Shown piece after piece: positions 2,380 through 54,518 of a DNA stretch of 64,000 nt. The stretch covers positions 3,405,397-3,469,396 of the forward strand of contig OZ246960.1 of assembly GCA_965232235.1 (NCBI GenBank), written 5' to 3'. The position numbers and the translations under genes were made by a program. The stretch comes from Candidatus Poribacteria bacterium (GTDB taxonomy: Bacteria > Poribacteria > WGA-4E > JAJDTR01). Positions within the stretch are counted from its first letter, which is position 1. Every line of letters starts with the position of its first letter. Under the pieces are notes generated by a model that did no database searches, was not told where the DNA came from, and saw nothing but the letters and a program-made list of their open reading frames with translations.

Positions 2380-2389
2380 ACACCGCAAT

Positions 2390-6901: not shown

Positions 6902-8812
6902 ATGGCAAAACAACACCCTCTTTACCCCATTTCAAAGCGAACTGTACTCATTGGCTGCCTGTTGATTGTCATCAACACCTACTGGCTTGCATATGCAGAG
7001 ATGCTTTGGCACACGGCGCATCTCACGACGGTTGCATTATCGATTAATGTACTATTTACGCTGTTGATTATTACATGGTTGAACATGATTATTCGGCGGA
7101 TTCTACCTAGAGCCGAACTCAGTCAGCAGGAGATGCTCGTAATTTTTTCGATGGTCGCCGTTGGGAGCGCTTTCTCGGGCCATGACAACATACCGCGTTT
7201 GATGGGACTGATGCCTTATGCACATCGATTTGCAACCCTCGAAAATGACTGGAGAGCGCTATTTTTCCATCATCTACCTGACTGGCTTATTATCTCCGAT
7301 TCACGGACCGTTCAGAACTTCTATGAGGGGAATCGCAATTTTTTCACAGATGGCTATTTGACGCACTGGATTACGCCGATATTTTTTTGGTCAATTATGG
7401 TATTTCTCCTAATGGTAATTTTCCTATGTTTATCCACAATCATCCGAAGACAGTGGGTCGAGAACGAAAAACTTCCATATCCGATAATCCAAATTCCGTA
7501 CGAGATTACGGCACGGTCTGGCGGGGTGTTTGGAAAGCGTTTGTCAGTTGCCGGTTTTGCGATACCGGTGATAATTGGGCTAATCAATGGATTGCACGGT
7601 GTCATACCAAATCTACCACAGATTATCACCGACTATGACCTCAATGTATACTTCACGCAGAAGCCGTGGAACGCACTGGGAAGTCTACCAGTTCGCTTTA
7701 ATGCGCTGATGATTGGAATAGCGTTTCTTCTACCCTTGGATCTTCTCTTTTCCTGCGTGTTTTTCTACTTTGTCAATAAAGCACAACTCTTAATCGGCAG
7801 TGCAGCCGGCCTTCAAAACGTCCCCGGATATCCATTTTTTGGAGAACAGGGCGCGGGTGCGCTGTTTGCCCTGTTGGTTGTTGCATGTTGGATCGGAAGG
7901 AAGCACATTTCTTACGTGTTTCGTCAAACCGTTCGATCAGAACGGATGCAAGACGCCACCGAACCGATTCCCTATAGATGGTCGGTGATTATATTGTGTG
8001 TCAGTCTTTTATTGTTGATGGGATTTTGCGTTAGGGGTGGGATGTCGATTTGGGCGTGCGCCGTTTTTGTGGGTGTGTATCTATCAGTTGTTCTTGGACT
8101 AGCACGGATGCGTGCCGAGTTGGGACCGCCAGTGCACGGAATCGGTTATGTGACGCCGCAATATCTGATAGTATCATTGTTCGGCACACGACATCTAAGA
8201 ACGCCGAATTTGACGATGCTTTCACTATTAAATTGGCTTAGCGGCGCAAGTTACGCTTCTTTTCGCACACATCCGATGCCAGACCAACTAGAGGCATTCA
8301 AACTCGCGAACCGAGCGGGAATCCGGAATCGAACGATGTTTGTTGTATTACTTATCGCCAGCATCGTCGGCATTGAATCTAGTCTCTTGATTTATCCTTA
8401 CACCATATATAAAACCGGAGTTGCGGCGAATGCGGAACAAATTCACGCGGGTGGGTTGGAGACCTATACTTTCCTTTCTTCTTGGCTGATTAATCCCCGG
8501 ACCACGAATTGGTTGGCGGTGATTGTTCTTGCTGCCGCGTTCCTTTTCAATCTTGGCGTGATGTTCATTCGTATTCGATATATATGGTGTCCACTTCACC
8601 CAGCGGGGTACGTCATCGGATTGGCACCGAATACGCCTGAACTCATTTGGTTTCCCCTGCTAGTTGCCATGGTCGCGAGGTGGTTGATACTCAAGCACGG
8701 CGGCATTAAGGGGTATCGGCGCGCGATTCCATTTTTCGTGGGATTGGCAATTGGAGAAACGTTGATGAGTTGCATCTGGGCTATACACAGCGTTGTCTTC
8801 CACACTACCTAA
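6902..8812 (+). CDS. DUF6785/DUF6784-type polytopic membrane protein (putative peptide transporter-like)
   Basis: 636 aa, many TMs, RRQWVENEKLPYP, RMRAELGPP and PLHPAGY motifs. Confidence 0.75.
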   Translation: MAKQHPLYPISKRTVLIGCLLIVINTYWLAYAEMLWHTAHLTTVALSINVLFTLLIITWLNMIIRRILPRAELSQQEMLVIFSMVAVGSAFSGHDNIPRLMGLMPYAHRFATLENDWRALFFHHLPDWLIISDSRTVQNFYEGNRNFFTDGYLTHWITPIFFWSIMVFLLMVIFLCLSTIIRRQWVENEKLPYPIIQIPYEITARSGGVFGKRLSVAGFAIPVIIGLINGLHGVIPNLPQIITDYDLNVYFTQKPWNALGSLPVRFNALMIGIAFLLPLDLLFSCVFFYFVNKAQLLIGSAAGLQNVPGYPFFGEQGAGALFALLVVACWIGRKHISYVFRQTVRSERMQDATEPIPYRWSVIILCVSLLLLMGFCVRGGMSIWACAVFVGVYLSVVLGLARMRAELGPPVHGIGYVTPQYLIVSLFGTRHLRTPNLTMLSLLNWLSGASYASFRTHPMPDQLEAFKLANRAGIRNRTMFVVLLIASIVGIESSLLIYPYTIYKTGVAANAEQIHAGGLETYTFLSSWLINPRTTNWLAVIVLAAAFLFNLGVMFIRIRYIWCPLHPAGYVIGLAPNTPELIWFPLLVAMVARWLILKHGGIKGYRRAIPFFVGLAIGETLMSCIWAIHSVVFHTT

Positions 8813-10708: not shown

Positions 10709-12934
10709 ATGCAACAGTTTTGTAGAGTCAAACTTGTGATACTTTGCTTAGTCCTTATTTCAACGGCGAATCTCAATGAATCGGATGCTGATTGGCCCGC
10801 ATGGCGAGGGGCAGCTCAAAACGGTGCGTCCTCGGAGACAGGTTTAGTTTCCACATGGTCGCAGGACGGCGAAAACCTAATATGGAAAGCGGATTTCATT
10901 GGTAGGTCTACACCTATCGTTCTTAACAAGCGTGTATACGTCATCGGACGCGTTGGGGAAGAAATTACGGAGCAGGAGAGAGTTGCCTGTTTCGACGCTG
11001 AGACGGGGGGATTGCTTTGGGAACATCGATTCAATGTCTTCCACAGCACGATTCCGTTTAACCGACTCGGTTGGACAAGCCTGGCCGGTGACGCGGAGAC
11101 AGGCAATATATACGCTCACACTATCAGCGGTATATTCGCCTGTTTTGACGGCGACGGCACGATTGTCTGGTCACGCTCCTTAACGGAGGAGTTTGGGCGT
11201 TTCACTGGCTACGGCGGACGTGTTGTCACGCCTGTGGTGGACAAAGACCTTGTAATTCTGAGTTTCCTCAATACGAGTTGGGGCAGCCACGCCGCAATGC
11301 GCCACCGCTATTTTGCTTTTGACAAGCGAACCGGGGATGTTGTATGGACGACAACTCCCGGTGGACGCCCCAAAGACACAACTTATCCCGTGGGCGTGAT
11401 AGCCGAGATCGAGGGGCGCCGTTTGTTGATTGACGGTAATTCGGACGGTCACGTTTATGCAATGGACGCGGCAACGGGTGAAAGAGTGTGGGGCTTCCAG
11501 GTTAGTCAAGGACCGCTCAACGCTTCGGTGGTGGTAGATGGAACGCGGGTCTACGCAAGTCACAATCGGGAGAACACGGACACAACGGTCATTGGACGTG
11601 TCGTCTGTATTGACGGAACGGGTACCGGTGATGTTTCCAAATCGCATGAAGTCTGGCGCGTCGATGGCATTGAGGCGGGTTATAGCTCACCGGCATTTCA
11701 CGATGGACGACTTTATGTTGTGGATAGTGCGGCAAACCTGCACTGTCTGAACGGGGAAACCGGTCAAGTTCACTGGACACACAGTCTCGGCACGGTTGGC
11801 AAGGGGTCTCCTGTGGTGGCGGATGGGAAAATTTACGTCACTGAAGTCAACGGCCATTTCCACATCCTGCAACCGGGTACCAACGAGTGTACGTCACTTG
11901 ACACAGAGCAGATTGAAAGACATTCCGGGCGCTACGCGGAGATTTTCGGGTCACCGGCTATAGCCTACCGTCGAATTTACTTTGCCACCGAGACAGGGCT
12001 CTACTGCTTAGGGAAAAATGAATATAGCGTGGCAGCGCTTTCAGGTACCAAAGCACCTGAGGCCTTGAGATATGGTCGGGGCAAACCTGAAACCGCCAAT
12101 GGGGTAACCGCACCTGCTTCGGTCCGAATCGTTCCTGCTGAACTCTTGAGCACACCGGGGGAAACGGTTCAATTCAACGCCCGTGTCTTTGATGAAATAG
12201 GTAATGCATTAGAAGAGAAAGTTGGTATGTGGTCGATTGACGGGTTGAAGGGTGCAATCGACGACAGCGGAACGTTGAAACTTGAAGCAGGCGACGTAGG
12301 ACAAGCGGGTACGGTCTCTGTCCAAGTTGACGAGGTACGAGATTCCGCGCGTGTCCGCGTCATTCCCGATTTGCCGTGGCACGAAGATTTTGAATCAATC
12401 GCGGAAGGAAAGACTCCCCCACACTGGGTGCGTGCAACGGGGCGATTCGCTGTCCGTGAGATGAACGGGAACAAGGTTCTCGTAAAACCACCTGCGCGTC
12501 GCGGGTTACATCGGTCCAATGTATATATCGGTCGTCCAAACATGAGCGGTTACACGGTTCAGGTCGATTTAATGGGGACCAAGCCCAAGCGGAATCTTCC
12601 TGACATGGGACTTATCGCGAATCGCTATACGTTAGAGATGCAAGGCAATCATCAGCGGCTTCAAGTCCTTTCTTGGCGGTCAGACCTGCGTATGGCAGAG
12701 TCGGTTGACCTCAAATGGGAAGCTAATATTTGGTACACCATGAAAATGACGGTCGAACTCGTTAACGATAAAGCGATTGTGAAAGGGAAGGTTTGGCAAA
12801 AAGACACACCCGAACCCGGCGAATGGACGATTACAGTCGAGGATCCGCTGCCGAACCGTGAAGGAAGTGCGGGCATTTATGGCTATTCACCCGCCGAGAT
12901 TTATTATGATAACCTGAGAGTTTGGGAGAACTGA
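10709..12934 (+). CDS. Secreted PQQ/BamB-like beta-propeller protein with Ig-like and C-terminal beta-sandwich domains
   Basis: Signal peptide then DWPAWRG, repeated DAxTGxxxW and SP-V-DG blades, C-terminal YYDNLRV domain. ATG 10709 preferred over 10619. Confidence 0.85.
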   Translation: MQQFCRVKLVILCLVLISTANLNESDADWPAWRGAAQNGASSETGLVSTWSQDGENLIWKADFIGRSTPIVLNKRVYVIGRVGEEITEQERVACFDAETGGLLWEHRFNVFHSTIPFNRLGWTSLAGDAETGNIYAHTISGIFACFDGDGTIVWSRSLTEEFGRFTGYGGRVVTPVVDKDLVILSFLNTSWGSHAAMRHRYFAFDKRTGDVVWTTTPGGRPKDTTYPVGVIAEIEGRRLLIDGNSDGHVYAMDAATGERVWGFQVSQGPLNASVVVDGTRVYASHNRENTDTTVIGRVVCIDGTGTGDVSKSHEVWRVDGIEAGYSSPAFHDGRLYVVDSAANLHCLNGETGQVHWTHSLGTVGKGSPVVADGKIYVTEVNGHFHILQPGTNECTSLDTEQIERHSGRYAEIFGSPAIAYRRIYFATETGLYCLGKNEYSVAALSGTKAPEALRYGRGKPETANGVTAPASVRIVPAELLSTPGETVQFNARVFDEIGNALEEKVGMWSIDGLKGAIDDSGTLKLEAGDVGQAGTVSVQVDEVRDSARVRVIPDLPWHEDFESIAEGKTPPHWVRATGRFAVREMNGNKVLVKPPARRGLHRSNVYIGRPNMSGYTVQVDLMGTKPKRNLPDMGLIANRYTLEMQGNHQRLQVLSWRSDLRMAESVDLKWEANIWYTMKMTVELVNDKAIVKGKVWQKDTPEPGEWTITVEDPLPNREGSAGIYGYSPAEIYYDNLRVWEN

Positions 12935-13012
12935 CGACACTCTCACTGCCCTAATCTGGAAAGGTTCCGCAAATTTTTTGGATAGTTGTTTTTCACGATA
13001 AAGGAATGATAA

Positions 13013-14470
13013 ATGCTTAAGATACAAAACTCAATTGCCGGAACTGTCGCGCTTATCTTCGTAAGTGCACTTGTGTTTCCGGTCACCGTGTCCTCCGAGC
13101 GTACGGAAGATACAGCAATGTGGGGATTTACGCCATCGCGCAATCTAGTTTCCGACGAGACTAATCTGCCCGAAAAATGGGATACGAAGACCGGGGAGAA
13201 CATCAAATGGAAAACAGAGCTGGGATCACAATCCTATGCGGGACCGGTTATTATAGGTGGAAAAGTTTTTGTAGGAACTAATAATCAAGCACTGCGCAAT
13301 CCCAAACTCACTGGAGATCGCGGTGTCATTATGGCGTTCAATGAGGTTGACGGCGCATTTCTATGGCAATCAACGCACACCAAACTTCCGGCAGGTCGAG
13401 TCAACGATTGGCCGCAACAGGGTATCTGCTCGACACCGTTCATTGAAGGCGATCGTCTGTACTACATCTCAAACCGTTGCGAAGTAGTTTGCATCGATAC
13501 GGAGGGGTTTACGGATGGTGAGAATGACGGTCCGTTTACAGATGAAACCGATGCGACCAAGATTGATGGCGATATTATATGGAAATACGATATGATGGAA
13601 GAGCTTGATGTTTTTCCTCACAATCTTGCCACGTGCTCCCCGGTTGGCGCCGGAGATTTACTTTTCGTCATCACGGCTAATGGCGTTGATGAAGGCCATA
13701 TCCACATTCCGTCGCCGTTTGCCCCGAGCTTCATTGCAGTCAATAAAGACACGGGAGAGCTTGTTTGGGAAAGTGATTTACCCGGGGAAGACATTCTCCA
13801 CGGTCAATGGTCTAATCCAGCGTACGCAGAGATTGACGGAGTGCCTCAAGTCATACTTCCCGGTGGTGACGGTTGGGTGTATTCACTTGAGCCCGAGACC
13901 GGAAATCTCATCTGGAAGTTTGACGGCAATCCCAAAGATTCCGTGTGGGAGTTAGGTGGGAGAGGAACCCGAAACGCTATAATTGCTACTCCTGTAATCT
14001 ACAACAACAAGGTTTTTATCGGTGTTGGCCAAGACCCGGAACATGGGGAGGGAGTCGGACACCTTTGGGCGATTGATGCAACAGGCAGCGGAGATATCAC
14101 CACAACAGGCGCCGTTTGGCATTTTGGGGACAAAAATTACCATCGTACCATATCCACTGTGGCGATTCACGACGGGTTGCTGTACGCGGCGGACTTAACA
14201 GGTTTTGTTTACTGTCTTAATGCAGATACAGGCGAACACTATTGGACATACGACACGTATGCGGCGATATGGGGCTCACCTTTCGTGGCGGACGGAAAGG
14301 TATACATCGGCGACGAAGACGGAGATGTTGCTGTGTTTAGGACAGGTAAAGAAATGGAACTGCTCTACGAGGTGAATATGGGTAGCGCGGTTTACACGAC
14401 CCCTGTGGCGAAGGACAAGGTGTTGTACATTGTGAGTCGAAACACACTTTTTGCGATTGCCGAAGAGTGA
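13013..14470 (+). CDS. Secreted PQQ/BamB-like beta-propeller protein
   Basis: Signal peptide, MWGFTPSRN, repeated xxTGxxxW blades, acidic loops. Confidence 0.85.
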   Translation: MLKIQNSIAGTVALIFVSALVFPVTVSSERTEDTAMWGFTPSRNLVSDETNLPEKWDTKTGENIKWKTELGSQSYAGPVIIGGKVFVGTNNQALRNPKLTGDRGVIMAFNEVDGAFLWQSTHTKLPAGRVNDWPQQGICSTPFIEGDRLYYISNRCEVVCIDTEGFTDGENDGPFTDETDATKIDGDIIWKYDMMEELDVFPHNLATCSPVGAGDLLFVITANGVDEGHIHIPSPFAPSFIAVNKDTGELVWESDLPGEDILHGQWSNPAYAEIDGVPQVILPGGDGWVYSLEPETGNLIWKFDGNPKDSVWELGGRGTRNAIIATPVIYNNKVFIGVGQDPEHGEGVGHLWAIDATGSGDITTTGAVWHFGDKNYHRTISTVAIHDGLLYAADLTGFVYCLNADTGEHYWTYDTYAAIWGSPFVADGKVYIGDEDGDVAVFRTGKEMELLYEVNMGSAVYTTPVAKDKVLYIVSRNTLFAIAEE

Positions 14471-14559
14471 AAAGGAACAACCCGGCGTCGAGTCTTAATG
14501 GATAAAGATCTTATCGAGAGTTGTGTTATTAGAATGTAAGGTGAAGCGTTAAAAAAGTC

Positions 14560-15648
14560 GTGGAATTTTTGAATCAAACTCTATCTCAAAGTATCAAGCT
14601 TGCACGTTGTCAACTGGATGCTCACGTCCGTGAAATAGTTGATTGGCACTTTAGTCCGGAGACGGGGTGTCCGTTTTGGCTAGAGTTTGCAGAAAAACTT
14701 GAATTTGACCCACGGAAAGAGATTGGGGGTTACGACGATTTAAAAATCCTTGGCCATTTTCAGGACGAGTGGTTACGCGGCGGACCAGTTCGGCGTTGGG
14801 TGCCCATAGCGTATGCGGATGAGCCGGTTTATGTATTCGAAACGGGGGGATCTACCGGAATTCCGAAATCTCGTATCAGTATCCGTGACTTTCAGATTGA
14901 CTACGAGGTCTACAGTGAAACGCTTTCCGACTCGAGTTTTCCTCGTGGAAGTGATTGGCTGATGCTTGGACCTACGGGGCCAAGGCGGTTGCGCCTCGCT
15001 GTCGAGCATCTGGCACAGCATCGAGGGGGAATCTGTTTTCTCGTAGATTTGGATCCGCGCTGGGTGAACAAACTCATCAAGTACGGGAAACATCAGGAAT
15101 TAGACGCATACAAAAGCCATGTAATCGATCAAGCGTTAAACATCTTACGAGCGCACGAGACAATCCAGTGCCTTTTCACGACGCCAAAACTGCTTGAGGC
15201 ACTCTGTGAAAAAATTTTTTTGAAGAAGGCAGGAATTCGGGGCATTTTTTGCGGTGGAACCGAAATGAACGCTCAATTTCACCGCTTCGCGCGAGAGGAA
15301 TTAGTTCCCGGGATAGATTTTATTCCCACCTACGGAAATACACTTATGGGGTTGGCGTGCTGTAAACCGTTCGATCTCGAGGACAACTACGCGATTATCT
15401 ATTATCCGCCCCAACCGCGCGCTGTTATTGAATTGGTCAACCCGGAAAACACTGAGGAAACCGTTGACTACGGTGATACAGGGCGAGTCATGTTGACCAC
15501 GCTAACCAAGGAATTCTTTATGCCGCGCTTCCTAGAAAGAGACGAGGCGGAACGAGCAAAGCCAATCGAAGATTATCCTTGGGATGGTGTCGAGAATCTA
15601 AGACTGTTGTCGGAGCTACAAGAGTCGGTTGTCGTAGGTGTGTACTAG
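14560..15648 (+). CDS. GriC/EhpF-like truncated adenylate-forming enzyme (ANL/LuxE-related)
   Basis: WHFSPETGCPFW N-terminus, ETGGSTGIPK P-loop, GGT, YGNTLMG, ERD. About 360 aa, with no C-terminal ANL lid. Confidence 0.7.
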   Translation: MEFLNQTLSQSIKLARCQLDAHVREIVDWHFSPETGCPFWLEFAEKLEFDPRKEIGGYDDLKILGHFQDEWLRGGPVRRWVPIAYADEPVYVFETGGSTGIPKSRISIRDFQIDYEVYSETLSDSSFPRGSDWLMLGPTGPRRLRLAVEHLAQHRGGICFLVDLDPRWVNKLIKYGKHQELDAYKSHVIDQALNILRAHETIQCLFTTPKLLEALCEKIFLKKAGIRGIFCGGTEMNAQFHRFAREELVPGIDFIPTYGNTLMGLACCKPFDLEDNYAIIYYPPQPRAVIELVNPENTEETVDYGDTGRVMLTTLTKEFFMPRFLERDEAERAKPIEDYPWDGVENLRLLSELQESVVVGVY

Positions 15649-15767
15649 CAAGCCACGGTCGCTAGGCATCAGTAGCGCCGAAGGCTTAGGGTTTGATTGG
15701 AAAGTTGGCGTCACGCGAGGTCACTAAAAGCGGAAAATGGTTATGTTGAGAGGACACGGAGGGACAG

Positions 15768-16469
15768 ATGACTAAGAAAATAGAGAAATTGTTCCGGGCG
15801 CCCTACTCTATGCCGAATGGATTGCAGATGACCGACGATGGTCTCTGGGTTGTTGATCAGATAACTGATAGGGTAGCTCTGCTTGAGATGAAAGAGACGT
15901 CTGAATACGGTGTGCCACGAGTCGTTTCAGAGATTACGTCAGAGTCGTCCAACACTAGCGGGATGACTCACGGCGGAGGTTCGCTTTGGCTGGCGGCGAA
16001 CGGTGAAGGGAGTCGATGGCGACCTGCCCGACCAACGGACGCGAAGGCTGGTGAATCGGACATACTTAGAATTAATCCGGATACCGGCAACACTGAGGAT
16101 CGATATCCGATTCCGGGTGGAGGCGGCACACACGGAGTTGAATACGATCACGTCGAAGAAGGCTATCTTTGGGTTCAAACCCTAAAGGATCAAATTCTGC
16201 ACAAGGTAGAAATTTCAGACTGGTCTGTGCAGCACACGATTCCACTACCATATACTCGCGGTCATGGAATGGTGCGATCAGATGATGGAATCTGGGTTGT
16301 GCACACTTCTGATCGCGTCATCGTCAAACTAGACGTGAACGACGGTCAAGAAATGGAGCGAATTGAAGTGCCGGAGCCGCATCCCGAGCCGCATGGACTG
16401 TCGACCTTCAACGGAGGTTTCGTCTATTGCGATGCGACTTCTGGTTGGGTGGCGAAGATTTCACTATGA
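15768..16469 (+). CDS. Small beta-propeller protein (NHL/Vgb-like repeats)
   Basis: Repeats PNGLQ..LWVVD, SGMT..LWLA, THGVE..LWV, GHGM..IWV, PHGLS..VYCD. Confidence 0.65.
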   Translation: MTKKIEKLFRAPYSMPNGLQMTDDGLWVVDQITDRVALLEMKETSEYGVPRVVSEITSESSNTSGMTHGGGSLWLAANGEGSRWRPARPTDAKAGESDILRINPDTGNTEDRYPIPGGGGTHGVEYDHVEEGYLWVQTLKDQILHKVEISDWSVQHTIPLPYTRGHGMVRSDDGIWVVHTSDRVIVKLDVNDGQEMERIEVPEPHPEPHGLSTFNGGFVYCDATSGWVAKISL

Positions 16470-16518
16470 AGGGTAGAATTCAGCGTACCATCCCCACCAA
16501 TGTTAAGAATATTGACCC

Positions 16519-17946
16519 ATGATACACATTCCGATTCTTCGAGCTGGGCGTTCCTACAGAAGTTTAAACACTGTTCGCGTGCCTCATGTTAAGACGGGTG
16601 AACCAGTCGCCATTGTAAGTCAAGCCAACCAAGGATTGATTGCGAAGGATTTGCACGAGGTAGACGAGAGTAGGCGGGCACTGGAGGCCTTTTCCGTTTC
16701 GGAGTTGTTGGCAATCTGTAAAGAGGCGGCACAACTTTTCGCAGAATCGGAACTGCCGGTGGATGGTACACCGCAATCTCCGGACGATTATATTCAGTGT
16801 CTCTCTGCAACCACAGGGATGCCGGAATCGCTTTGCTGGAAAAATATGGCAAAGATTCGATTGATGCTTGAACAACTTGAGGCTGTTCTCGGGGGGTTGA
16901 CACGCGGCTTAGATCTCTCCGTTCTTGATGCAGGTTGGGGCGTTCAAGACGGGCGACACCTGAGCTATGTACCACAAACCGATGCACTAGGCGCTGTGCT
17001 TCCAAACAATTCTCCAGGAGTGCATGCGCTCTGGATTCCGGCAATTCCGCTAAAAACTCCGCTCATACTCAAACCCGGTAGCCTGGAACCGTGGACGCCC
17101 TTTCGAATATCGCAAGCGCTCATTGAGGCGGGTTGTCCTCCGGAAGGGTTTGGGTTTTATCCGACGGATTATTCGGGAAGTAGCGAGATTATGCTTCGAT
17201 GTGGTCGATCGATGCTATTTGGCGGAGGTACTACTGTTGACCCATGGAAAACAGAACTTGGCGTTCAGATTCATGGTCCCGGTCAGAGCAAGATTATTCT
17301 TGCCGAGGATACAATCGCGCTATGGGAAGATTACCTAGATTTGATGGTTACCTCCGTTGCAGAGAATGGCGGCAGGTCATGTATTAACGCTTCGGGAGTG
17401 TGGGTTCCATCAGATGGACGAAATGTAGCAGAAGCATTGGCATCACGTTTGTCGCGAATTGAGGCTAAACCACTCGATGATCCGCAGGCTGGAATCGCCG
17501 CTTTTCCAAATCCCGAAGTCGCCCGTCAGATTTCAAACCTTATCGACAATCACCTCAAAGTACCTGGCGCAACGGACATTACGGCGAGGATTCGAGGGTC
17601 GGAGAGGGTAGCTGAGGTGGATGGATGCACGTTTCTCCTTCCGACGGTCATCTGGTGCGAAGACGCTCGGCACCCGCTGGCGAACACTGAATACCTATTC
17701 CCGTTCGTGAGCGTTGTCGAGATGCCGCAAAGAGCTATGCTAGAACACATTGGCCCCACGTTAGTTGTGACTGCCATCACAGAGGATAGAGCATTTAAGC
17801 GTGACTTGCTAACCTCACCGACGGTAGATCGTTTGAATTTGGGCCCCATTCCCACAAATCAGATTTCTTGGGAGCAACCTCACGAGGGAAATCTATTTGA
17901 GTTTCTGTACCAACAGCGGGCGTTACAGATTTCAGCCGCACCTTGA
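16519..17946 (+). CDS. Aldehyde dehydrogenase-fold protein, GriD/EhpG/LuxC-like putative acyl reductase
   Basis: PNNSP, LKPG, catalytic Cys in NGGRSCINAS, EYLFPF. The usual ELGG glutamate motif is replaced by HGPG. Confidence 0.8.
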   Translation: MIHIPILRAGRSYRSLNTVRVPHVKTGEPVAIVSQANQGLIAKDLHEVDESRRALEAFSVSELLAICKEAAQLFAESELPVDGTPQSPDDYIQCLSATTGMPESLCWKNMAKIRLMLEQLEAVLGGLTRGLDLSVLDAGWGVQDGRHLSYVPQTDALGAVLPNNSPGVHALWIPAIPLKTPLILKPGSLEPWTPFRISQALIEAGCPPEGFGFYPTDYSGSSEIMLRCGRSMLFGGGTTVDPWKTELGVQIHGPGQSKIILAEDTIALWEDYLDLMVTSVAENGGRSCINASGVWVPSDGRNVAEALASRLSRIEAKPLDDPQAGIAAFPNPEVARQISNLIDNHLKVPGATDITARIRGSERVAEVDGCTFLLPTVIWCEDARHPLANTEYLFPFVSVVEMPQRAMLEHIGPTLVVTAITEDRAFKRDLLTSPTVDRLNLGPIPTNQISWEQPHEGNLFEFLYQQRALQISAAP

Positions 17947-17970
17947 GTCAAGCAGATACAGGGTATAGTA

Positions 17971-19080
17971 ATGCACTCCTTCGACTTCCAACCCACGACC
18001 CACGTTGTCTTTGGAGAGCAGGCGTTAAGCAAGCTGGGACATTTGGCAAAGACAATGGGAGCGCATCGTGCCCTAGTTGTTACCGATCCCGGCGTCGCCA
18101 GAGTTGGCATCCTTGAAAAAGCGCTTCATTTTCTCAAACAGGAATCTATCCGCGTTGCTGCGTTCGAGGATGTTGAAGAGAACCCGACAACGAGGCATGT
18201 TGCTAACGGCGTGCAGTTTGCCAAAGATTTTGGACGACTAGATTTCATCGTTGCGATTGGCGGCGGGAGCGCGATGGATTGTGCCAAAGGGATAAACTTT
18301 ATCCATACAAACGGCGGGGAGATGGAGGACTACTGGGGCATGGATAAAGCCACCAAGCCCATGCTGCCTTCAATCGGGATTCCAACGACCGCCGGGACAG
18401 GCAGCGAAGCTCAGTCCTTTGCGTTAATTGCTCAGGAAAAAAGCCATGTTAAGATGGCGTGCGGCGACAAGAAAGCTCGGTTTCGAACGGTAATACTGGA
18501 TCCCGTGTTACCCGTTAGCGCCCCCGAAGGAGTGAAGGCAAGTGCAGGCATCGATGCAATCTCTCATGCCGTGGAAAGCCACGTTACAACACGCAGGAAT
18601 CCGGTTTCACGGCTTTTTTCGAGCGAAGCATGGCGTTTGCTTGAAGCCGGTTATGAAGTTGCGGTTACGGATCCGGCAAACCTTGAGGCTCAGAGTCGGA
18701 TGCTGTTGGGTGCGCATTTCGCGGGCATTGCAATCGAAAATTCAATGCTGGGCGCCGCGCACGCCTGCGCCAATCCGTTGACTGCAAAATACGGCATTAC
18801 TCATGGGATCGCGGTTGGACTGATGCTTCCCCACGTAATCGAATTCAATTCGCAGACCGTGGGCGAGTGTTATCAGGAGTTGCATCCGTCATCACTTTGT
18901 GAACGTATATGTGAATTAAAAACCGCAGCAGATTTGCCTAATGTGCTTCGTGATTTTGAAATTGAGGAGGAAGATTTGCCTGAATTGGCAAAGGAGGCCG
19001 CAAACCAATGGACGGGACAGTTTAACCCGCGGCCCGTTGGTGAAACCGAGTTGCTTCAGCTTTATGAGTCTGCCTACTGA
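17971..19080 (+). CDS. Iron-containing alcohol dehydrogenase
   Basis: GGGSAMDCAK, PTTAGTGSE, DAISHAVE, HACAN and HGIA metal ligands. Confidence 0.93.
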   Translation: MHSFDFQPTTHVVFGEQALSKLGHLAKTMGAHRALVVTDPGVARVGILEKALHFLKQESIRVAAFEDVEENPTTRHVANGVQFAKDFGRLDFIVAIGGGSAMDCAKGINFIHTNGGEMEDYWGMDKATKPMLPSIGIPTTAGTGSEAQSFALIAQEKSHVKMACGDKKARFRTVILDPVLPVSAPEGVKASAGIDAISHAVESHVTTRRNPVSRLFSSEAWRLLEAGYEVAVTDPANLEAQSRMLLGAHFAGIAIENSMLGAAHACANPLTAKYGITHGIAVGLMLPHVIEFNSQTVGECYQELHPSSLCERICELKTAADLPNVLRDFEIEEEDLPELAKEAANQWTGQFNPRPVGETELLQLYESAY

Positions 19081-20215
19081 ATCCCATCACGTATCACGCA
19101 TTGTGAAATGCCTTTTTCTCGGTTGTGTTTTGCTCCATTCGATTGGGTGGAGTGCGGTTTCCTCGGAAGATTGGCGTAGCTTTCGAGGCAATTCGGAATT
19201 GACGGGGGTTGCTACGAGCAAATTGCCCGACAATCTCGAACTTCTATGGACGTATCAAGCCGAGGAAGGGATTGAGTCAACCGCAGCCATCGCGGGCAAA
19301 ACTGCCTATGTGGGTTCGTGGGACGGATATCTATATGCAGTCAACCTGTTAACCGGAGAACTCAGATGGAAATACAAAGCGTCGAACGAGATTAAATCCT
19401 CTCCGTCCGTATTTGGAGAGACGGTCTACTTCGGCGACGAAACGGGCGATTTTCACGCGGTCGATGCCGAGACTGGCGCAGAATTGTGGATTTTCCGGAC
19501 CGAAGCAGGTATTATTTCTTCGGCAAATTTTGCTAGTGGTCGCGTTATCTTCGGCTCCTATGATCAGAATCTTTACTGTTTATCCATTGCGGACGGTTCT
19601 CTAATTTGGAAGTTTCAAACCGAAGGCTACGTGCATGGCTCAGCGGCGGTTTCGGACGGTGTCGCGGTTGTCACCGGATGTGATAGTTATCTTCGCCTTA
19701 TCAATCTGGAAAACGGTCGGGAAGAAAAGAGTATAGAGCTGGGCGACTACGTCGCCGCCAGCCCGGCAACGCTGAATCATCGTGCCTATGCCGGAACGTT
19801 TGGCAATCGCGTTTTGGGTATTGACTTGTCAAACGCGAAAGTACTCTGGCGTTACGAAAATCCGGAAAAGCAGTTTCCGTTCTACGCTTCGGCTGCCATT
19901 ACCGACGATGTACTCATTGTCGGCGGCAGAGACAAGATGATTCATGCCCTCATGCCGGAGACCGGCGATCTGTTATGGACCTACCCCTCCAAGTCGCGAG
20001 TGGATTCGTCCCCAGTGATCGTTGGCAAACGAGTGTTTTTTGGAACCATCGGTGGCGTCCTATACGGGTTGAACATTCATACCGGTGAGCAAATTTGGGA
20101 ATTTGTTACCGGTGCTTCGATTATGGCATCACCAAGTGTTGGAGGTGGCAAGTTGGTGATAGGCACGGACGATGGCGTTTTATACTGTTTCGGCGAAAAG
20201 GCAAACGATGGGTAA
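19064..20215 (+). CDS. Secreted PQQ/BamB-like beta-propeller protein
   Basis: DWRSFRG after a signal-like segment, eight SS(P/A)...GxxDG.LY...TG...W blades. Start moved from 18941 to avoid a long overlap with the ADH. Confidence 0.85.
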   Translation: MSLPTESHHVSRIVKCLFLGCVLLHSIGWSAVSSEDWRSFRGNSELTGVATSKLPDNLELLWTYQAEEGIESTAAIAGKTAYVGSWDGYLYAVNLLTGELRWKYKASNEIKSSPSVFGETVYFGDETGDFHAVDAETGAELWIFRTEAGIISSANFASGRVIFGSYDQNLYCLSIADGSLIWKFQTEGYVHGSAAVSDGVAVVTGCDSYLRLINLENGREEKSIELGDYVAASPATLNHRAYAGTFGNRVLGIDLSNAKVLWRYENPEKQFPFYASAAITDDVLIVGGRDKMIHALMPETGDLLWTYPSKSRVDSSPVIVGKRVFFGTIGGVLYGLNIHTGEQIWEFVTGASIMASPSVGGGKLVIGTDDGVLYCFGEKANDG

Positions 20216-21554
20216 TCAAAACAAAATAGTAAAGTCAGAACCCGCGACAACACGGCTCGATTCCGAGCACACAGAAGTAGGAAGCGTTTTTGTCTCGAAT
20301 TATCCTCCGTATTCCTTCTGGAGCAAAGAAGCTGTATCTGATGCGATGACGGCATTGGAGTCACCTTCTGTGCGAGGAGCACAATTGGGACTCTATTTGC
20401 ATATTCCGTTTTGCCGGAAACGGTGTAAATTTTGCTATTTTCGGGTTTATACCGACAAGAACAGTTCGGAAATCGAGACTTATCTTGATGCACTCGCCCG
20501 GGAGGTTGAGATTTATAGCACTTTACCGGCTATCAAGGACAGACTCCTGTCATTTGTCTACTTTGGCGGAGGGACGCCTTCCTACATTAGCGCCAAGCAT
20601 TTGAAGACGCTGGTTGATCGGCTGAAGAAAGCGATTCCTTGGGATGGCGCAGACGAAATCGCCTTTGAGTGTGAACCTGGTACCCTGACGCAAACCAAGT
20701 TAGAAGCTATCAGAGAAATTGGTGTAACCCGGTTGAGCCTTGGTGTCGAAAACCTCAACGACGAAATCCTGGCGGAAAATGGGAGAGCGCACCTTTCCAA
20801 GGAAGTATATCGCGTGATGCCGTGGATTGAAGCGCTCGATTTCGATCAGGTGAATATCGACCTGATTGCGGGCATGGTTGGCGAGACGTGGGAGAGTTGG
20901 CGCGAAACGGTTAAGCGGACCATTGATTTGAATCCCGATAGTATTACCGTATATCAGATGGAACTTCCGTTTAACGCTACCTATTCACAGGACATTCTTG
21001 GCGGTAAAGCCTTGCCCGTAGCGAATTGGAAAACCAAGCGCGAATGGCACAACTACGCATTTGAACAGTTTGAACTAGCCGGATACGGCAACTCAAGCGC
21101 ATACACAATGATCAGGAAAGACAAACCGGGCAGATTTGTTTACCGCGATGCAGTCTGGCAGGGTAGTGACATGATGGGTACAGGGGTTGCTTCCTTTTCG
21201 CACCTCAGCGGCACACATTATCAGAATGCAACGGGTTGGAAGGACTACATCGGTGCTCTTGAATCTGGCCGGTTGCCGTTGAGCCGCGCGTTTGTCACCA
21301 CCTCATCGGAGCGTCTTACGCGAGAAATGATACTGCAATTGAAACTGGGAAGAATAGAGGCAGCCTATTTTCGTGATAAGTTCAATACCGATATTGTGGC
21401 TGAATATGGTTCAATCTACAAAAAACTGCAGGACGAAGGTATGCTGACGTTCGGCAAAGATGCAATAGAATTGACACGAAAAGGCTTACTTCAGGTGGAT
21501 GGGTTGTTGCCGGAGTTTTACGCCCTCAACTATCGAAACGCTCGATATACATAA
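20208..21554 (+). CDS. HemN-like (class C) radical SAM protein
   Basis: YLHIPFCRKRCKFCYF, YFGGGTPS, RLSLGV, NIDLIAG, HemN C-terminal LTRKG. Overlaps the upstream stop codon. Confidence 0.9.
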   Translation: MGNQNKIVKSEPATTRLDSEHTEVGSVFVSNYPPYSFWSKEAVSDAMTALESPSVRGAQLGLYLHIPFCRKRCKFCYFRVYTDKNSSEIETYLDALAREVEIYSTLPAIKDRLLSFVYFGGGTPSYISAKHLKTLVDRLKKAIPWDGADEIAFECEPGTLTQTKLEAIREIGVTRLSLGVENLNDEILAENGRAHLSKEVYRVMPWIEALDFDQVNIDLIAGMVGETWESWRETVKRTIDLNPDSITVYQMELPFNATYSQDILGGKALPVANWKTKREWHNYAFEQFELAGYGNSSAYTMIRKDKPGRFVYRDAVWQGSDMMGTGVASFSHLSGTHYQNATGWKDYIGALESGRLPLSRAFVTTSSERLTREMILQLKLGRIEAAYFRDKFNTDIVAEYGSIYKKLQDEGMLTFGKDAIELTRKGLLQVDGLLPEFYALNYRNARYT

Positions 21555-21623
21555 GATTTGATTGGAGATTGCGGCATTTTGTCCGCTGAATTTCGTTCTG
21601 CTCTATGTGATAATATCTTCGAT

Positions 21624-22202
21624 ATGGAAAAATCCGAAGAAACTGCTCCTATTTATACTATCGGCTACGGCGGCCGTTCGGTCGATGAATTCATTCAAGT
21701 GCTGCAAGAGCATGATATTGCGTATCTGATTGACGTGCGTTCAGCGCCTTATTCGCGCTATAAACCCGAATTTTCCAGAGAACCGCTGGATGCGGAATTG
21801 GAACGACACGGAATTCGGTATGTTTTCATGGGCGACACACTGGGGGGACACCCCGACGACGACGAATGCTATGATACGAACGGCAAAGTAGACTACGGTA
21901 AGTTGAAGGTCACCGAACGATATCTAAGCGGGATTAAACGTCTCCAAGGCGCCTTTACACAGCAACAGCGCGTCATTCTCATGTGCAGCGAGAGGAAGCC
22001 GGAGAACTGCCATCGAAGCAAACTGATCGGGGAGACTCTGGCAAAACAGGCTATACATGTCTTTCACATTGATGAAGACGACGAACTGCGGTCGCATGAG
22101 GAATTTGTCAAACAGCTTACGGGGGAGCGGACGACGGAGGAATCTGCCCAGCTCGAATTAAATCTGACTCTTGAGAATACATTGCGTTCACTCCATCGAT
22201 AA
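21624..22202 (+). CDS. DUF488 domain protein
   Basis: IYTIGY, LIDVRSAPYSR, LGG, MCSE.....CHR. Confidence 0.9.
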   Translation: MEKSEETAPIYTIGYGGRSVDEFIQVLQEHDIAYLIDVRSAPYSRYKPEFSREPLDAELERHGIRYVFMGDTLGGHPDDDECYDTNGKVDYGKLKVTERYLSGIKRLQGAFTQQQRVILMCSERKPENCHRSKLIGETLAKQAIHVFHIDEDDELRSHEEFVKQLTGERTTEESAQLELNLTLENTLRSLHR

Positions 22203-22372
22203 GAGACATGCCGTAATATCCATAATGGTTAGTTGCGCTCGTGCACGGGTGCATGACAGAAGTATTGAACATTAGATCCGCGAATCTTGGTCTGAAACAG
22301 TTTTGCTAACACGAAACAGGAAGGGATACTAATGAAGAAGATTACAGAGCCGTGGATACACCCACACTCCGA

Positions 22373-22395
22373 AGCCCCGGTGGGGGCGACAAGTG
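22373..22395. repeat. REP-like GC hairpin (AGCCCC..GGGG family)
   Basis: AGCCCCGGTGGGGGCGACAAGTG resembles the reverse complement of the units at 48826-48852, 48877-48937 and 61041-61057. Confidence 0.5.
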
Positions 22396-22639
22396 GAAAG
22401 GTTAAATTCGCACAAAATCATGAGATTCTGACGAGAGGATAGTAGCAAATGAACTTGCACCTGACTGTCCAAAGGGACTCTAATAGATGCTATCACTCGG
22501 CAAATTCAAAATGAGAATTGGTGACATTATTGTGTGTCTCATTTGCGAACTGATGGCGTTTAGAAGATAAACCGGAAGTTGAGGAAAGATGTTTATACAA
22601 CTTTTGGGCTAGTTTCTTTGAATAGGTTAATTTTGTGTA

Positions 22640-23500
22640 ATGAAAGTCTTAATTGTTGCCAAAAGCCGAATGAAAAACGCTGTGGGAGTCATCGCGATTA
22701 CTCAACAGGGGAACTGCATCCGACTCATACAGTCCCAAAAAACCTCATCGTACGGGGAGCATCGAGGATTTGAGGTCGGAGATGTTTGGGAAATTGCAGT
22801 CACTCGCGTGCATCAGATGATTCAGCCACATTTAAGCGACTTCATGGTTTACAAGCGGCATTGGCTGGCCCCGGCGAAAGACTTTATTGGTTCTATCGAA
22901 CGTCTTATGCATCCGAGAAAAGGACACCCACGTGTGATTTATGAAGGACTTTTGAAATCCACGAGCACGAAAAGCGGGGCACTTTACATTGCCGCGAAAA
23001 GCGGTGTTCCTTCCTACAGCACAACGTTTTGGCGTCCAGATCAGCCGCTTGCATGTACTAAAGAAGGAGCGCGTGTGCGGTTCTGTTATCCGTCTTCCAA
23101 CGGCGGATATACACTTCGATTCGTAGGCTTCCAGAGACCGCTTGAATCAATACCAGCGGAATCTCTTCTGTGCGTATCACTAGCTCATTGGTGGCGGCCG
23201 AAATATAAGCTAGGTGTAGAATCACGTTGCTACGCCCAACTCTACGGCTGGGTTCTTGACAGGGAAGAAAATCTCGCACGGCGTTCAAAGTCGTTTGCGA
23301 CAACGGCTCTGCATGATTATAATTCTTACGCGGCGCAGAGTACTAAAAATGGTCGAATGTGGAGCGATGGGTGGACACCTGACTACCATGATTATCAGGG
23401 ATATGAAGAGTACGACGGGGCGGAGGCATCGCTGGTTCATTCACTATTTTCTGACGATGATCCGGCCGACAGTTGGGAGGGGCCAGGAAATTGGGAGTGA
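22640..23500 (+). CDS. Putative dual OB-fold domain protein with acidic C-terminal tail
   Basis: VLIVAKSRM...IRL, FEVGDVWEI, PH, LLCVSLAHWW...CYAQL pattern, and position next to DUF488. Confidence 0.55.
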   Translation: MKVLIVAKSRMKNAVGVIAITQQGNCIRLIQSQKTSSYGEHRGFEVGDVWEIAVTRVHQMIQPHLSDFMVYKRHWLAPAKDFIGSIERLMHPRKGHPRVIYEGLLKSTSTKSGALYIAAKSGVPSYSTTFWRPDQPLACTKEGARVRFCYPSSNGGYTLRFVGFQRPLESIPAESLLCVSLAHWWRPKYKLGVESRCYAQLYGWVLDREENLARRSKSFATTALHDYNSYAAQSTKNGRMWSDGWTPDYHDYQGYEEYDGAEASLVHSLFSDDDPADSWEGPGNWE

Positions 23501-26031: not shown

Positions 26032-26032
26032 C

Positions 26033-26704
26033 ATGATTAAGGCCGTTATTTTCGATTTCGATGGGCTTATCCTTGACACGGAAAGTCCAGTCTACCAATC
26101 TTGGCAGGAAATATATCAGTTCTACAATTGTTCATTGCCCATATCGGAGTGGTTGAAGTGCGTTGGTACGGCAGATGCCTTTGACCCTTATGACTATCTT
26201 GAAGCACAGCTCGGTCAACCTATCGATCGCGCCGAACTCCATAAGAAACGAAATGCGCTGAAGAGCAGTCTGATAGATGTGGAATCGGTCATGCCCGGCG
26301 TAGAAGATCGAATTGCCGAGGCTCAAACACTGGGACTAAAGCTCGGAGTCGCTTCCAGTTCACCGAGAAGCTGGGTCGTTGACAACTTGTCCAGATTGAA
26401 TCTAGAACACCACTTTAGTACGATTAAGTGCTGCGAGGACGTAGAGCGCGTCAAGCCGGATCCCGCTCTGTATGTAGGCGCTTTACAAGCACTAAAGGTG
26501 AAAGCGAACGAAGCTATAGTATTTGAAGATTCGCTGAACGGTGTGACGGCTGCCAAACGTGCCGGTATATTTTGCGTGGCAGTTCCGAATGCAATTACTC
26601 GACACTCGTCCTTTGAATTGGCGGATTTGCAGTTGTCCTCTTTGGCGGATATGTCGCTTGAGGAGGTTGTAAGTGATGCAAACAGTAGGGTGCCCAAGAG
26701 GTGA
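26033..26704 (+). CDS. HAD-IA family hydrolase/phosphatase
   Basis: VIFDFDGLILDTE, VASSS, KPDP, FEDSLNG. Confidence 0.92.
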   Translation: MIKAVIFDFDGLILDTESPVYQSWQEIYQFYNCSLPISEWLKCVGTADAFDPYDYLEAQLGQPIDRAELHKKRNALKSSLIDVESVMPGVEDRIAEAQTLGLKLGVASSSPRSWVVDNLSRLNLEHHFSTIKCCEDVERVKPDPALYVGALQALKVKANEAIVFEDSLNGVTAAKRAGIFCVAVPNAITRHSSFELADLQLSSLADMSLEEVVSDANSRVPKR

Positions 26705-26717
26705 AGCCATCACGTAC

Positions 26718-31359: not shown

Positions 31360-31405
31360 CTTGGAATCCGACTATCGATTATTCTTTCAACCAAGGAGCG
31401 CTTTA

Positions 31406-54507: not shown

Positions 54508-54518
54508 GGAGGAATAGG

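Follow-up and report, generated by a model that had tools for sequence, protein, structure and literature searches.

We analysed a 64,000-nucleotide stretch of DNA (the window), positions 3,405,397-3,469,396 of the single-contig, 5.63 Mb genome of a sponge-associated Candidatus Poribacteria bacterium, and describe in it a conserved gene cluster that joins an EhpF/EhpG-like carboxylate reductase pair to exported propeller proteins. The named close protein relatives in public records are likewise Candidatus Poribacteria. Between 10.6 and 21.6 kb (window positions are used throughout) lies a tightly packed run of open reading frames (ORFs) on the + strand, the last three genes of which overlap. 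A preliminary description of this DNA had listed seven genes in the run, and all seven lie where it placed them: the propellers prop771 (10619/10709-12934) and prop485 (13013-14470), an adenylating enzyme (14560-15648), an aldehyde dehydrogenase (ALDH)-fold protein (16519-17946), an iron-containing alcohol dehydrogenase (Fe-ADH; 17971-19080), a third propeller, prop424a (18941-20215), and a HemN-like radical S-adenosylmethionine (SAM) enzyme (20172-21554). That account was right about gene content but overlooked a 233-amino acid gene at 15768-16469 and took prop424a from the opening of its ORF at 18941, whereas translation probably starts at M42 near 19064. The run is the front half of a larger cluster of about 13 genes in the window and 17-20 genes in other phyla. 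The pathway proposed earlier thus captured the acid reductase core but missed a ligase, a halogenase, a TAXI-type tripartite ATP-independent periplasmic (TRAP) transporter and a fourth propeller that belong to the same conserved unit. Pfam scans covered 53 window ORFs, including 50 of the 58 ORFs of at least 150 amino acids; the other eight are shorter frames inside or across scanned genes.

The preliminary description had staked its proposal on these genes keeping company elsewhere, and they do. The order propeller-propeller-EhpF-ALDH-FeADH-propeller-HemN-like-propeller is the same in five phylum groups, namely Poribacteria, Latescibacterota, Calditrichota, Acidobacteriota and Gemmatimonadota-labelled genomes. 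A locus scan with one genome per species returned at least 599 pattern matches, 588 of them encoding an adenylase relative. The best 80 loci, 45 from Poribacteria and 35 from outside, were taken as the locus set and originate from Poribacteria, Latescibacterota, Calditrichota, Acidobacteriota and two metagenome-assembled genomes (MAGs) labelled Gemmatimonadota. ORF clustering across these 80 loci recovered the adenylase in 76, cluster propellers in 74, the ALDH-fold protein in 64, Fe-ADH in 37, prop424a in 30 and the HemN-like enzyme in 28; outside Poribacteria (35 loci), the last four were found in 27 (ALDH-fold protein), 23 (Fe-ADH), 20 (prop424a) and 20 (HemN-like). These counts are lower bounds, as many loci are cut off by the end of a contig or of the 10-kb flank, and in Poribacteria the partner counts are lower bounds also because inserted genes push the partners outwards. 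Across phyla, identity to the window proteins is 74-80% for the adenylase, 56-69% for the ALDH-fold protein, 50-63% for Fe-ADH, 59-67% for the HemN-like enzyme and 45-61% for prop771 and prop424a.

The adenylase, its ALDH-fold partner and the alcohol dehydrogenase

The gene at 14560-15648 (+) encodes the putative adenylation subunit of an arylcarboxylate reductase, an EhpF/GriC-type adenylating enzyme of 362 amino acids with the N-terminal Pfam AMP-binding domain only. Residues 21-362 align with residues 22-366 of the EhpF structure 3l2k/3hgu (366 amino acids; E 1.1e-45), and EhpF is the sole PDB protein matched at E up to 1. AMP-binding_C is absent from its Pfam matches, and the full-length alignment to the 366-residue EhpF indicates that the enzyme is therefore lid-less like EhpF, as the preliminary description had proposed. 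The segments F93-ETGGSTG-x-PK103 and T257-YGNT261, which we take to be the phosphate-binding loop (T/S)GG(S/T)TGxPK and the YGxT motif, are invariant in 16 adenylases from five phyla. The adenylase gene is single copy in this genome. Plasmid-borne relatives with 31-37% identity were found in 29 records, labelled as arylcarboxylate reductase, phenazine biosynthesis protein or AMP-binding protein.

The partner gene at 16519-17946 (+) encodes a 475-amino acid protein of the EhpG/GriD type, a putative ALDH-fold thioester reductase subunit (Pfam Aldedh). An ehp-like phenazine cluster on an E. coli plasmid contains an EhpF homologue followed by an aldehyde dehydrogenase family gene, and the window protein aligns end to end with this EhpG-like partner (25% identity, E 9e-40) as well as with the partner of an EhpF homologue on a Halalkalicoccus plasmid (29%, E 2e-36). 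C288 in the segment GGRSC(I)NAS, N164 and H252 are invariant in 16 orthologues from five phyla. H252 sits in GPGxSK at the place where ALDHs carry the general-base glutamate, as located by what we take to be the general-base motif ELGGK. This agrees with the earlier observation of an ALDH fold that keeps the catalytic cysteine and lacks the general-base glutamate; such features would be expected of a thioester reductase whose acyl-enzyme has to be spared hydrolysis.

Modelling of the two proteins together gave an ipSAE of 0.76 in three of three runs, compared with 0.00 for the best of three controls. The ipSAE mark was reached by 58 of 80 solved complexes and by 2 of 110 mismatched pairs, counts that are only a rough guide with the custom alignments used. 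The partner was modelled with a predicted local distance difference test score (pLDDT) of 92, and at least 71% of contacts were common to the runs. The modelled interface comprises adenylase residues 176-182, 210-217, 237-248 and 276-277 and ALDH-fold residues 15-17, 35-46, 222-226 and 242-246; among these, adenylase Q239, F240, R242 and F243 and ALDH-fold S15, A36, N37 and G39 are invariant. A solved complex of an EhpF/EhpG-type pair was not found among the PDB sequence matches. Fusion proteins of the types EhpF-ALDH, propeller-EhpF and, once, EhpF-ALDH-FeADH were found; every one is a single-member cluster, and they may be run-through or assembly artefacts. Together with the homology to both partners, which bears out the earlier assignment to the GriC/GriD and EhpF/EhpG pairs, the complex model supports a two-protein, carrier-free carboxylic acid reductase.

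Within Poribacteria, the two genes are often separated by the 233-amino acid gene (15768-16469, +), a partial propeller resembling SGL and Vgb lyase with weak Pfam Vgb_lyase and SGL matches. It occupies this position in 32 of 45 Poribacteria loci and in none of the 35 other loci and is a Poribacteria-specific insertion. Downstream of the pair, the gene at 17971-19080 (+) encodes the iron-containing alcohol dehydrogenase (Pfam Fe-ADH 160 bits, ADH_Fe_C 117 bits). It scores under every NCBIfam equivalog cut-off, the best being ErcA (274 versus 550). The enzyme is intact: the metal ligands D195, H199, H264 and H278 and the GGGS loop are invariant in 20 sequences, and an onward reduction of an aldehyde to the alcohol is therefore plausible.

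The closest characterized counterparts are EhpF/EhpG of Pantoea agglomerans (D-alanylgriseoluteic acid, a phenazine) and GriC/GriD of Streptomyces griseus (grixazone), in which, as here, a lid-less adenylase of about 365 amino acids from the superfamily of acyl-CoA synthetases, nonribosomal peptide synthetase (NRPS) adenylation domains and luciferases (ANL) is followed by a Cys-bearing, Glu-less ALDH-fold protein. According to the accessible text of PMC10179220, which cites Suzuki et al. 2007, GriC adenylates 3-amino-4-hydroxybenzoate (3,4-AHBA) and GriD reduces it to the aldehyde; the same chemistry, acid to acyl-AMP to aldehyde, is expected of both pairs (PMC10179220). The accessible literature mentions EhpF/EhpG within phenazine clusters only. 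In contrast to these systems, the window pair shares only 31-37% (adenylase) and 25-29% (reductase) identity with EhpF/EhpG-type proteins, forms a distinct tight clade on a long branch, and is set among exported propellers and followed by Fe-ADH and the HemN-like enzyme. It also belongs to the near-core gene set of whole lineages and not to a strain-specific antibiotic cluster, and it lacks phenazine or 3,4-AHBA genes. The preliminary description had noted the lack of phenazine, AHBA, polyketide synthase and NRPS core genes, and none occurs among the 53 scanned ORFs. 3,4-AHBA was rejected as the substrate, since the GriH family (PF01959) has no match in the whole genome (a control search was positive in three genomes) and the window holds no phenazine genes.

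A related logic is found in LuxE/LuxC, where an adenylating enzyme of similar size passes the acyl group to a cysteine of an ALDH-fold reductase of similar size, which yields the aldehyde. In the window there is neither a LuxD thioesterase partner nor a fatty-acid context, and a LuxE/LuxC identity was ruled out, as neither Pfam family matched the adenylase or the ALDH-fold protein at E up to 0.01.

The exported propellers and the HemN-like enzyme

The cluster encodes four exported propellers. Three secreted BamB/PQQ-like propellers had been described before, and all three are present and of PQQ_2 type; the fourth, prop424b, had escaped notice. Each has an N-terminal hydrophobic leader followed by a DWPxWRG-type motif, both judged by eye. 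prop771 (10709-12934, +; Pfam PQQ_2 105 bits) is a BamB-like propeller with a C-terminal extension of about 270 amino acids. Its ORF opens at 10619 with a likely start at M31 (10709), and the leader MQQFCRVKLVILCLVLISTANL... leads into DWPAWRG. It is the first gene of the conserved order, with 45-76% identity in other loci, and its C-terminal 292 amino acids match no significant Pfam family. prop424a (19064-20215, +) scores 206 bits on Pfam Beta-prop_ACSF4 (cut-off 133) and matches PQQ_3-type repeat proteins, BamB and tetrathionate hydrolase; its place between Fe-ADH and the radical SAM gene is conserved. prop424b (23708-24982, +; PQQ_2 120 bits) follows directly after the HemN-like gene in 17 loci outside Poribacteria, with 46-59% identity.

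prop485 (13013-14470, +), a PQQ-type propeller by Pfam, is the most conserved of the four, with 63-78% identity across phyla. Its AlphaFold2 model (pLDDT 80.9, predicted template modelling score 0.85) is eight-bladed and BamB-like, with a Foldseek target-normalized template modelling score (TMt) of about 0.8. In an alignment covering five phyla, six histidines (H203, H229, H263, H344, H350, H370) and the acidic residues D226, E227, D341, E343, E346, D434, E435 and D436 are invariant. With strands assigned from the model, 80 of 170 positions are invariant in the D-A and B-C loops, which form one face of a propeller with four-stranded blades, compared with 19 of 78 in the A-B and C-D loops and 37 of 171 in the strands. 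This His/Asp/Glu-rich face is a candidate ligand, metal or catalytic site. Among the top 50 Foldseek matches listed for prop485 are BamB, designed propellers, PQQ dehydrogenases and tetrathionate hydrolase, but no His-rich metallo-propeller, and in the ESM Atlas prop485 falls only in unnamed PQQ_2 clusters.

By sequence, the four propellers belong to the PQQ_2/PQQ_3 repeat class, the best PDB matches being the designed 'Cake' propellers, 3hxj, a PknD-like sensor domain and BamB. A quinoprotein dehydrogenase identity was ruled out: the propellers score 39-90 bits on TIGR03075 (cut-off 480), quinoprotein dehydrogenases in the PDB match them only as weak partial repeats, and BamB ranks above these by fold. 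A genome search for the pqqC family gave no match, but the controls were equally silent, which makes it uninformative on a link to pyrroloquinoline quinone (PQQ). The propellers share with BamB and other PQQ_2/PQQ_3 proteins the eight-bladed fold, repeat-level similarity and export, and score 56-132 bits on the BamB model TIGR03300 (cut-off 285). However, BamB is a single lipoprotein of the beta-barrel assembly machinery (BAM) complex, whereas here four distinct old families stand in one operon with cytoplasmic enzymes, and the six invariant histidines and many acidic residues on one face of prop485 are not required by the scaffold role of BamB. Tetrathionate hydrolase provides a cofactor-free enzymatic example of a PQQ-type propeller.

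Between prop424a and prop424b in the conserved order lies the gene for a HemN-like (class C-type) radical SAM enzyme (20172-21554, +; Pfam Radical_SAM and HemN_C), which confirms the earlier assignment. It matches HemN (1olt) over the full HemN architecture (E 2.4e-34), and C81, C85 and C88 of the CxxxCxxC motif, GGGTP and an N-terminal SNYPP-type motif, presumably the HemN YPP motif, are invariant. CxxxCxxC, GGGTP, HemN_C and the overall architecture are shared with HemN, ChuW/HutW and class C methyltransferases. In contrast to HemN and ChuW/HutW, the fourth cysteine of what we take to be the HemN motif CxxxCxxCxC is replaced (C81-x3-C85-x2-C88-Y-F, with Y89 and F90 invariant), all NCBIfam scores are below cut-off (hemN 190.9 versus 324.95, HutW/ChuW 188.6 versus 400, STM4012 179 versus 380) and the operon is unrelated to haem synthesis or uptake. 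NocN matches the radical SAM core only (residues 69-274).

It is very improbable that this gene is the housekeeping hemN of the genome and stands in the operon by accident. The full-length likeness to E. coli HemN, including the YPP-type motif, would fit such a role, as would the rest of the genome, where the HemF family has no match and the sole other HemN-family gene (G000:C1:4368264-4369394), probably HemW-like, shares 29% identity and has a single in-frame TAG within the matched region, which may stem from a sequencing error, a pseudogene or the presence of two genes. Yet the low hemN score and the invariant Y89/F90 in place of the fourth cysteine argue otherwise, and a ChdC/HemQ-family gene (64 bits, above cut-off, partial match) makes a HemN-independent haem route plausible, so that haem can probably be made without HemN. 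The HemN-like gene is moreover fixed between two propeller genes in 20 of the 35 loci outside Poribacteria and is lost with the cluster in five of five genomes (see below). The fixed operon position and the joint loss with the cluster make a dedicated role likelier than a housekeeping one.

The rest of the cluster and its conservation

Further downstream, the gene at 26673-28025 (+) encodes a PaaK-like aryl/arylacetate adenylating ligase in which, with AMP-binding and AMP-binding_C_2, the C-terminal domain is present. It scores 259 on the NCBIfam PaaK model (cut-off 700), 172 on FlxY and 107 on BagE/FevW, and orthologues with 59-68% identity lie downstream in other loci. The gene at 29273-30547 (+) encodes a flavin-dependent halogenase of the CndH/PltA/Bmp2 type by its PDB matches, the best 14 of 17 of which are halogenases (8zop, E 6e-62; CndH 3e1t, E 3e-52; then Mpy16, PltA, Bmp2 and CmlS). 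G18-G-G-P-x-G23, K79 and W224-F-W-x-I-P229 are invariant in 11 sequences, and K79 aligns, as counted by eye on the alignment, with the presumably catalytic K76 of CndH. The protein is below the CmlS equivalog cut-off (172 versus 900), and an orthologue is present in five of five genomes of other phyla.

The same flavoprotein scores 120 bits on QhpG and 103 on LodB, which raises the possibility that it and the radical SAM enzyme modify a propeller residue before export, as in the maturation of protein-derived cofactors in quinohemoprotein amine dehydrogenase (QHNDH) or LodA. QHNDH clusters join a radical SAM enzyme, a flavoprotein and a propeller subunit, and the invariant polar face of prop485 would fit this reading. 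We consider this highly unlikely, since both scores are under their cut-offs (240 and 400) and under the halogenase matches (CmlS 172 bits; PDB E 6e-62), the halogenase Lys and WxWxIP are invariant, and no role would be left for the acid reductase, alcohol dehydrogenase, ligase, glycosyltransferase or exporter.

The cluster in the window ends with genes for a TAXI-family TRAP solute-binding subunit (31325-32410, +; TIGR02122 259 bits, cut-off 84) and a fused TRAP permease (33370-35319, +; TIGR02123 542 bits, cut-off 321). They are 71-76% and 63-67% identical, respectively, to the cluster-end genes of one Latescibacterota and one Gemmatimonadota-labelled genome. In other phyla, the HemN-like gene is followed by prop424b, a TonB-dependent receptor, the PaaK-like ligase and the flavoprotein. 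Of 86 loci scanned, 16 carry the receptor, and none of these 16 is from Poribacteria. The receptor scores above the cut-off of the siderophore-receptor model TIGR01783 (249 bits versus 223.5), and neither an NRPS nor an NRPS-independent siderophore (NIS) synthetase was found in the cluster by the window Pfam scans or in the clusters of other phyla. All cluster proteins score below the NCBIfam equivalog cut-offs, and the only models passed are subfamily models, those of the TonB receptor and the TRAP subunits. Five clusters of other phyla also encode a family 4 glycosyltransferase (GT4; 5/5), an FtsX/MacB-type permease of 1034-1137 amino acids (5/5), a LolD-like ATP-binding cassette (ABC) ATPase (4/5) and a 4HBT thioesterase (3/5), and in two of the five a further propeller and a TAXI-TRAP transporter close the cluster. 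In the present genome this GT4/thioesterase/ABC module (module C) is intact at 16.6-23.2 kb of the genome, 3.4 Mb off, with 52-65% identity; a 158-amino acid protein of the module has no significant Pfam family. Beside it (G000:C1:11840-16620) lie genes for a second ABC ATPase, an 855-amino acid FtsX/MacB permease and a CrtC-like double-lipocalin protein.

These transport genes bear on the possibility that the locus is catabolic or serves salvage. An external aromatic, possibly halogenated, acid would then be imported, by TAXI-TRAP everywhere and by the TonB receptor in other phyla. After binding or pre-processing by the propellers in the periplasm, it would be broken down in the cytoplasm by the ligase, the flavoprotein, the reductase pair and the alcohol dehydrogenase, the last two of which may run oxidatively. 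TRAP systems import carboxylates, and loci resembling polysaccharide utilization loci with TonB receptors are typical of these phyla. An EhpF-like/ALDH pair on a haloarchaeal plasmid adjoins a sodium:solute symporter (SSF), an SSF symporter occurs in two other-phyla clusters, and near-universal presence in Poribacteria would fit a nutritional trait. We nevertheless regard this reading as possible but unlikely: a lid-less adenylase with a Glu-less ALDH-fold protein appears built for reduction and not oxidation, the flavoprotein retains the halogenase Lys and WxWxIP, the GT4, permease, LolD-like and thioesterase genes are syntenic in the clusters of other phyla at the counts given above, and conserved ring-cleavage or beta-oxidation genes are absent from the cluster.

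Lineage-specific genes are inserted in the window at 21558-23500, 25006-26704, 28022-29224 and 32618-33367. They encode a DUF488 protein, a DuOB/Tet-like 2-oxoglutarate (2OG)-oxygenase-like protein, a secreted Kelch propeller, a haloacid dehalogenase (HAD)-type phosphatase, a GSDH-type propeller (resembling soluble PQQ sugar dehydrogenase) and a 3-keto-disaccharide-hydrolase-like protein. The DUF488 and DuOB/Tet-like genes separate the HemN-like gene from prop424b, and the Kelch, HAD and GSDH-type propeller genes surround the ligase and halogenase genes; Kelch and HAD recur in one sister-genus locus (L016/L060). Upstream of the cluster, 6902-8812 encodes a 636-amino acid polytopic membrane protein (DUF6785 and DUF6784). 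Five Latescibacterota loci (L079, L080, L081, L084, L090) have a homologue with 23-24% identity immediately upstream on the opposite strand, and the window protein may be a further, loosely linked membrane component.

Judged by sequence identity across phyla, most cluster proteins equal or exceed RecA and GyrB in conservation: in comparisons of this genome with four from other phyla, identity is 59-65% for RecA and 56-57% for GyrB, compared with 74-80% for the adenylase and 67-78% for prop485. The adenylase is present as a single copy in 115 of 121 sampled Poribacteria and is found in 19 of 61 sampled genomes of the Latescibacterota phylum. In five Poribacteria genomes that lack it (91-97% complete), the ALDH-fold protein, prop485, the halogenase and an orthologue of the HemN-like enzyme were each found in none of the five, although one holds a 28% identical paralogue of the HemN-like enzyme. 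The same queries do retrieve orthologues in other genomes. The cluster genes are thus lost together. In a quick maximum-likelihood tree the adenylases form a conserved clade 4.6 changes per site away from three EhpF/GriC-type outgroups. The phyla mostly cluster, and the two Gemmatimonadota-labelled MAGs nest in Latescibacterota, with adenylases nearly identical to Latescibacterota ones (L068/L070 and L097/L087/L094; end branches 0.012-0.05). This near-identity could reflect mis-binning, mislabelling or recent transfer. According to record titles, the cluster also occurs in MAGs of non-sponge origin.

Conservation of this kind matters for a comparison with 'Halo_AMP' clusters, defined in a preprint on sponge metagenomes as Trp_halogenase plus AMP-binding within 20 kb (10.64898/2026.08.03.742642). 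The accessible text reports frequent PQQ-like domains together with radical SAM, thioesterase, glycosyltransferase, ABC and TonB genes, and assigns 9% of the families to Latescibacterota and 8% to Poribacteria, with Acidobacteriota also among the origins. That text is generic, with no product, no named EhpF/EhpG pair and no cross-phylum operon order, and the figure and supplementary tables of the preprint may show this exact architecture (10.64898/2026.08.03.742642). The window agrees with the halogenase plus AMP-binding rule, and the locus could be an ordinary cluster of this type making a halogenated antibiotic-like compound, with the propellers as accessory or resistance proteins for which the product is neither cofactor nor ligand. 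This appears rather improbable to us: antibiotic clusters are usually patchy and variable, whereas this one is single copy in 115 of 121 Poribacteria, most of its proteins are conserved at or above the level of RecA/GyrB, the four propellers hold fixed operon positions and the cluster is also found in non-sponge MAGs.

Elsewhere in the window, the region 53400-60800 is of low GC content (0.42-0.44 versus about 0.49 elsewhere). It encodes two proteins without a Pfam family, a protein with a 3'-phosphoadenosine 5'-phosphosulfate (PAPS)-reductase domain, a DNA N6/N4 methylase and a MvaI/BcnI-type restriction endonuclease and is probably an acquired restriction-modification or defence islet. At 61092-61730, the gene for a small cytochrome P460-family protein adjoins that for a PhyH-type dioxygenase, and at 430-3442 a P-type ATPase gene is directly followed by one for a ZIP-family metal transporter.

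Proposed function and significance

We propose, with about an even chance of being right, that the cluster encodes a conserved envelope-linked small-molecule system made up of the reductase pair and Fe-ADH, tailoring enzymes, an export module, the propellers and re-uptake. The lid-less EhpF-like enzyme would adenylate a carboxylate, for which an aryl or arylacetic acid is the likeliest candidate. The acyl group would then move to Cys288 of the bound EhpG-like protein and NAD(P)H would release the aldehyde, with neither CoA nor a carrier protein involved; hydrolysis of the acyl-enzyme would be avoided because the general-base glutamate is replaced by histidine. Fe-ADH would reduce the aldehyde to the alcohol, and the same scaffold may be tailored by the PaaK-like ligase, by the CndH-type halogenase and, through methylation or related C-C chemistry, by the HemN-like enzyme. 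The GT4, the thioesterase and the LolD/FtsX ABC machine, 3.4 Mb away here, would glycosylate and export the product, which the four exported eight-bladed propellers would bind or transform in the periplasm, prop485 with its invariant His/Asp/Glu face being the likely catalytic or metal-binding one. TAXI-TRAP, joined in other phyla by the siderophore-type TonB receptor, could take the carboxylate form back up. The product is best read as an aryl alcohol or aldehyde that is modified, probably by halogenation, and handled in the envelope, and it may be, as the preliminary description had proposed, a small molecule or cofactor used by the propellers.

Several observations weigh against this proposal. 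The very long adenylase branch makes the aryl substrate an extrapolation. Halogenases of variant B, the CndH/PltA/Bmp2 type, usually act on carrier-bound substrates, and a comparison of one Latescibacterota cluster with five other genomes, at ORFs of at least 30 amino acids, gave no conserved small ORF for an acyl carrier protein (ACP) or precursor peptide. Three of the four propellers have few invariant polar residues; given this and their likeness to the non-catalytic scaffold BamB, the propellers may only bind something. The near-equal HemN and HutW/ChuW scores do not single out one chemistry for the radical SAM enzyme. Module C is unlinked to the cluster in this genome, and an orthologue of the TonB receptor was not found here (tblastn best E 1e-4); because the receptor is absent, the uptake loop cannot be general. 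Evidence for expression is weak: one metatranscriptome contains short contigs 93-100% alike on prop485, the ALDH-fold gene, Fe-ADH, the HemN-like gene and prop424b, together with two 40-base fragments (85-90%) on prop485 and the PaaK-like gene, but these contigs may be DNA carry-over, and their depth and strand, like the stretches they leave uncovered, are uninformative.

A more far-reaching version, which we consider speculative and improbable, is a redox or cofactor cycle that spans periplasm and cytoplasm and is built on a diffusible halogenated aryl alcohol/aldehyde/acid. In such a cycle prop485 would be a new cofactor- or metal-dependent periplasmic oxidoreductase that oxidizes the exported alcohol or uses it as an organic cofactor, and TAXI-TRAP would return the acid for re-reduction by the EhpF/EhpG-type pair and Fe-ADH at the expense of ATP and NAD(P)H. 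In the fungal aryl-alcohol cycle, aryl aldehydes are reduced to alcohols by intracellular NADPH-dependent enzymes and re-oxidized by extracellular oxidases, and the aryl-alcohol oxidase (AAO) of Bjerkandera prefers chlorinated anisyl alcohols, according to the accessible text of PMC8140971. The window and module C offer like parts in intracellular acid/aldehyde reduction, a halogenase, a possible methylase, an exporter, a carboxylate importer and exported propellers. The likeness is nevertheless one of analogy only, as there is no glucose-methanol-choline (GMC) oxidase here and oxidation by a propeller is hypothetical. If true, bacteria would have a counterpart to the fungal (chloro)anisyl alcohol cycle, or PQQ-less propellers a cofactor system resembling that of PQQ. 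Such a cycle would account for the stronger-than-RecA conservation of a specialized-metabolism pair and for its near-universal occurrence within a phylum.

The reductase pair adds a new member to a known family, and the operon unites known enzyme families with exported propellers in an unprecedented conserved arrangement. Poribacteria, Latescibacterota, Calditrichota and parts of Acidobacteriota, all major uncultured groups, appear, from identity levels, to keep the cluster under purifying selection at least as strong as that on RecA and GyrB. For biocatalysis, the pair is attractive as a compact alternative to the large carboxylic acid reductases that consist of a single chain. As an expressible two-protein, carrier-free acid reductase, it also offers an entry point to a conserved envelope function of sponge symbionts and of sediment and soil bacteria, and could clarify what the many PQQ-like propellers without a known cofactor do.

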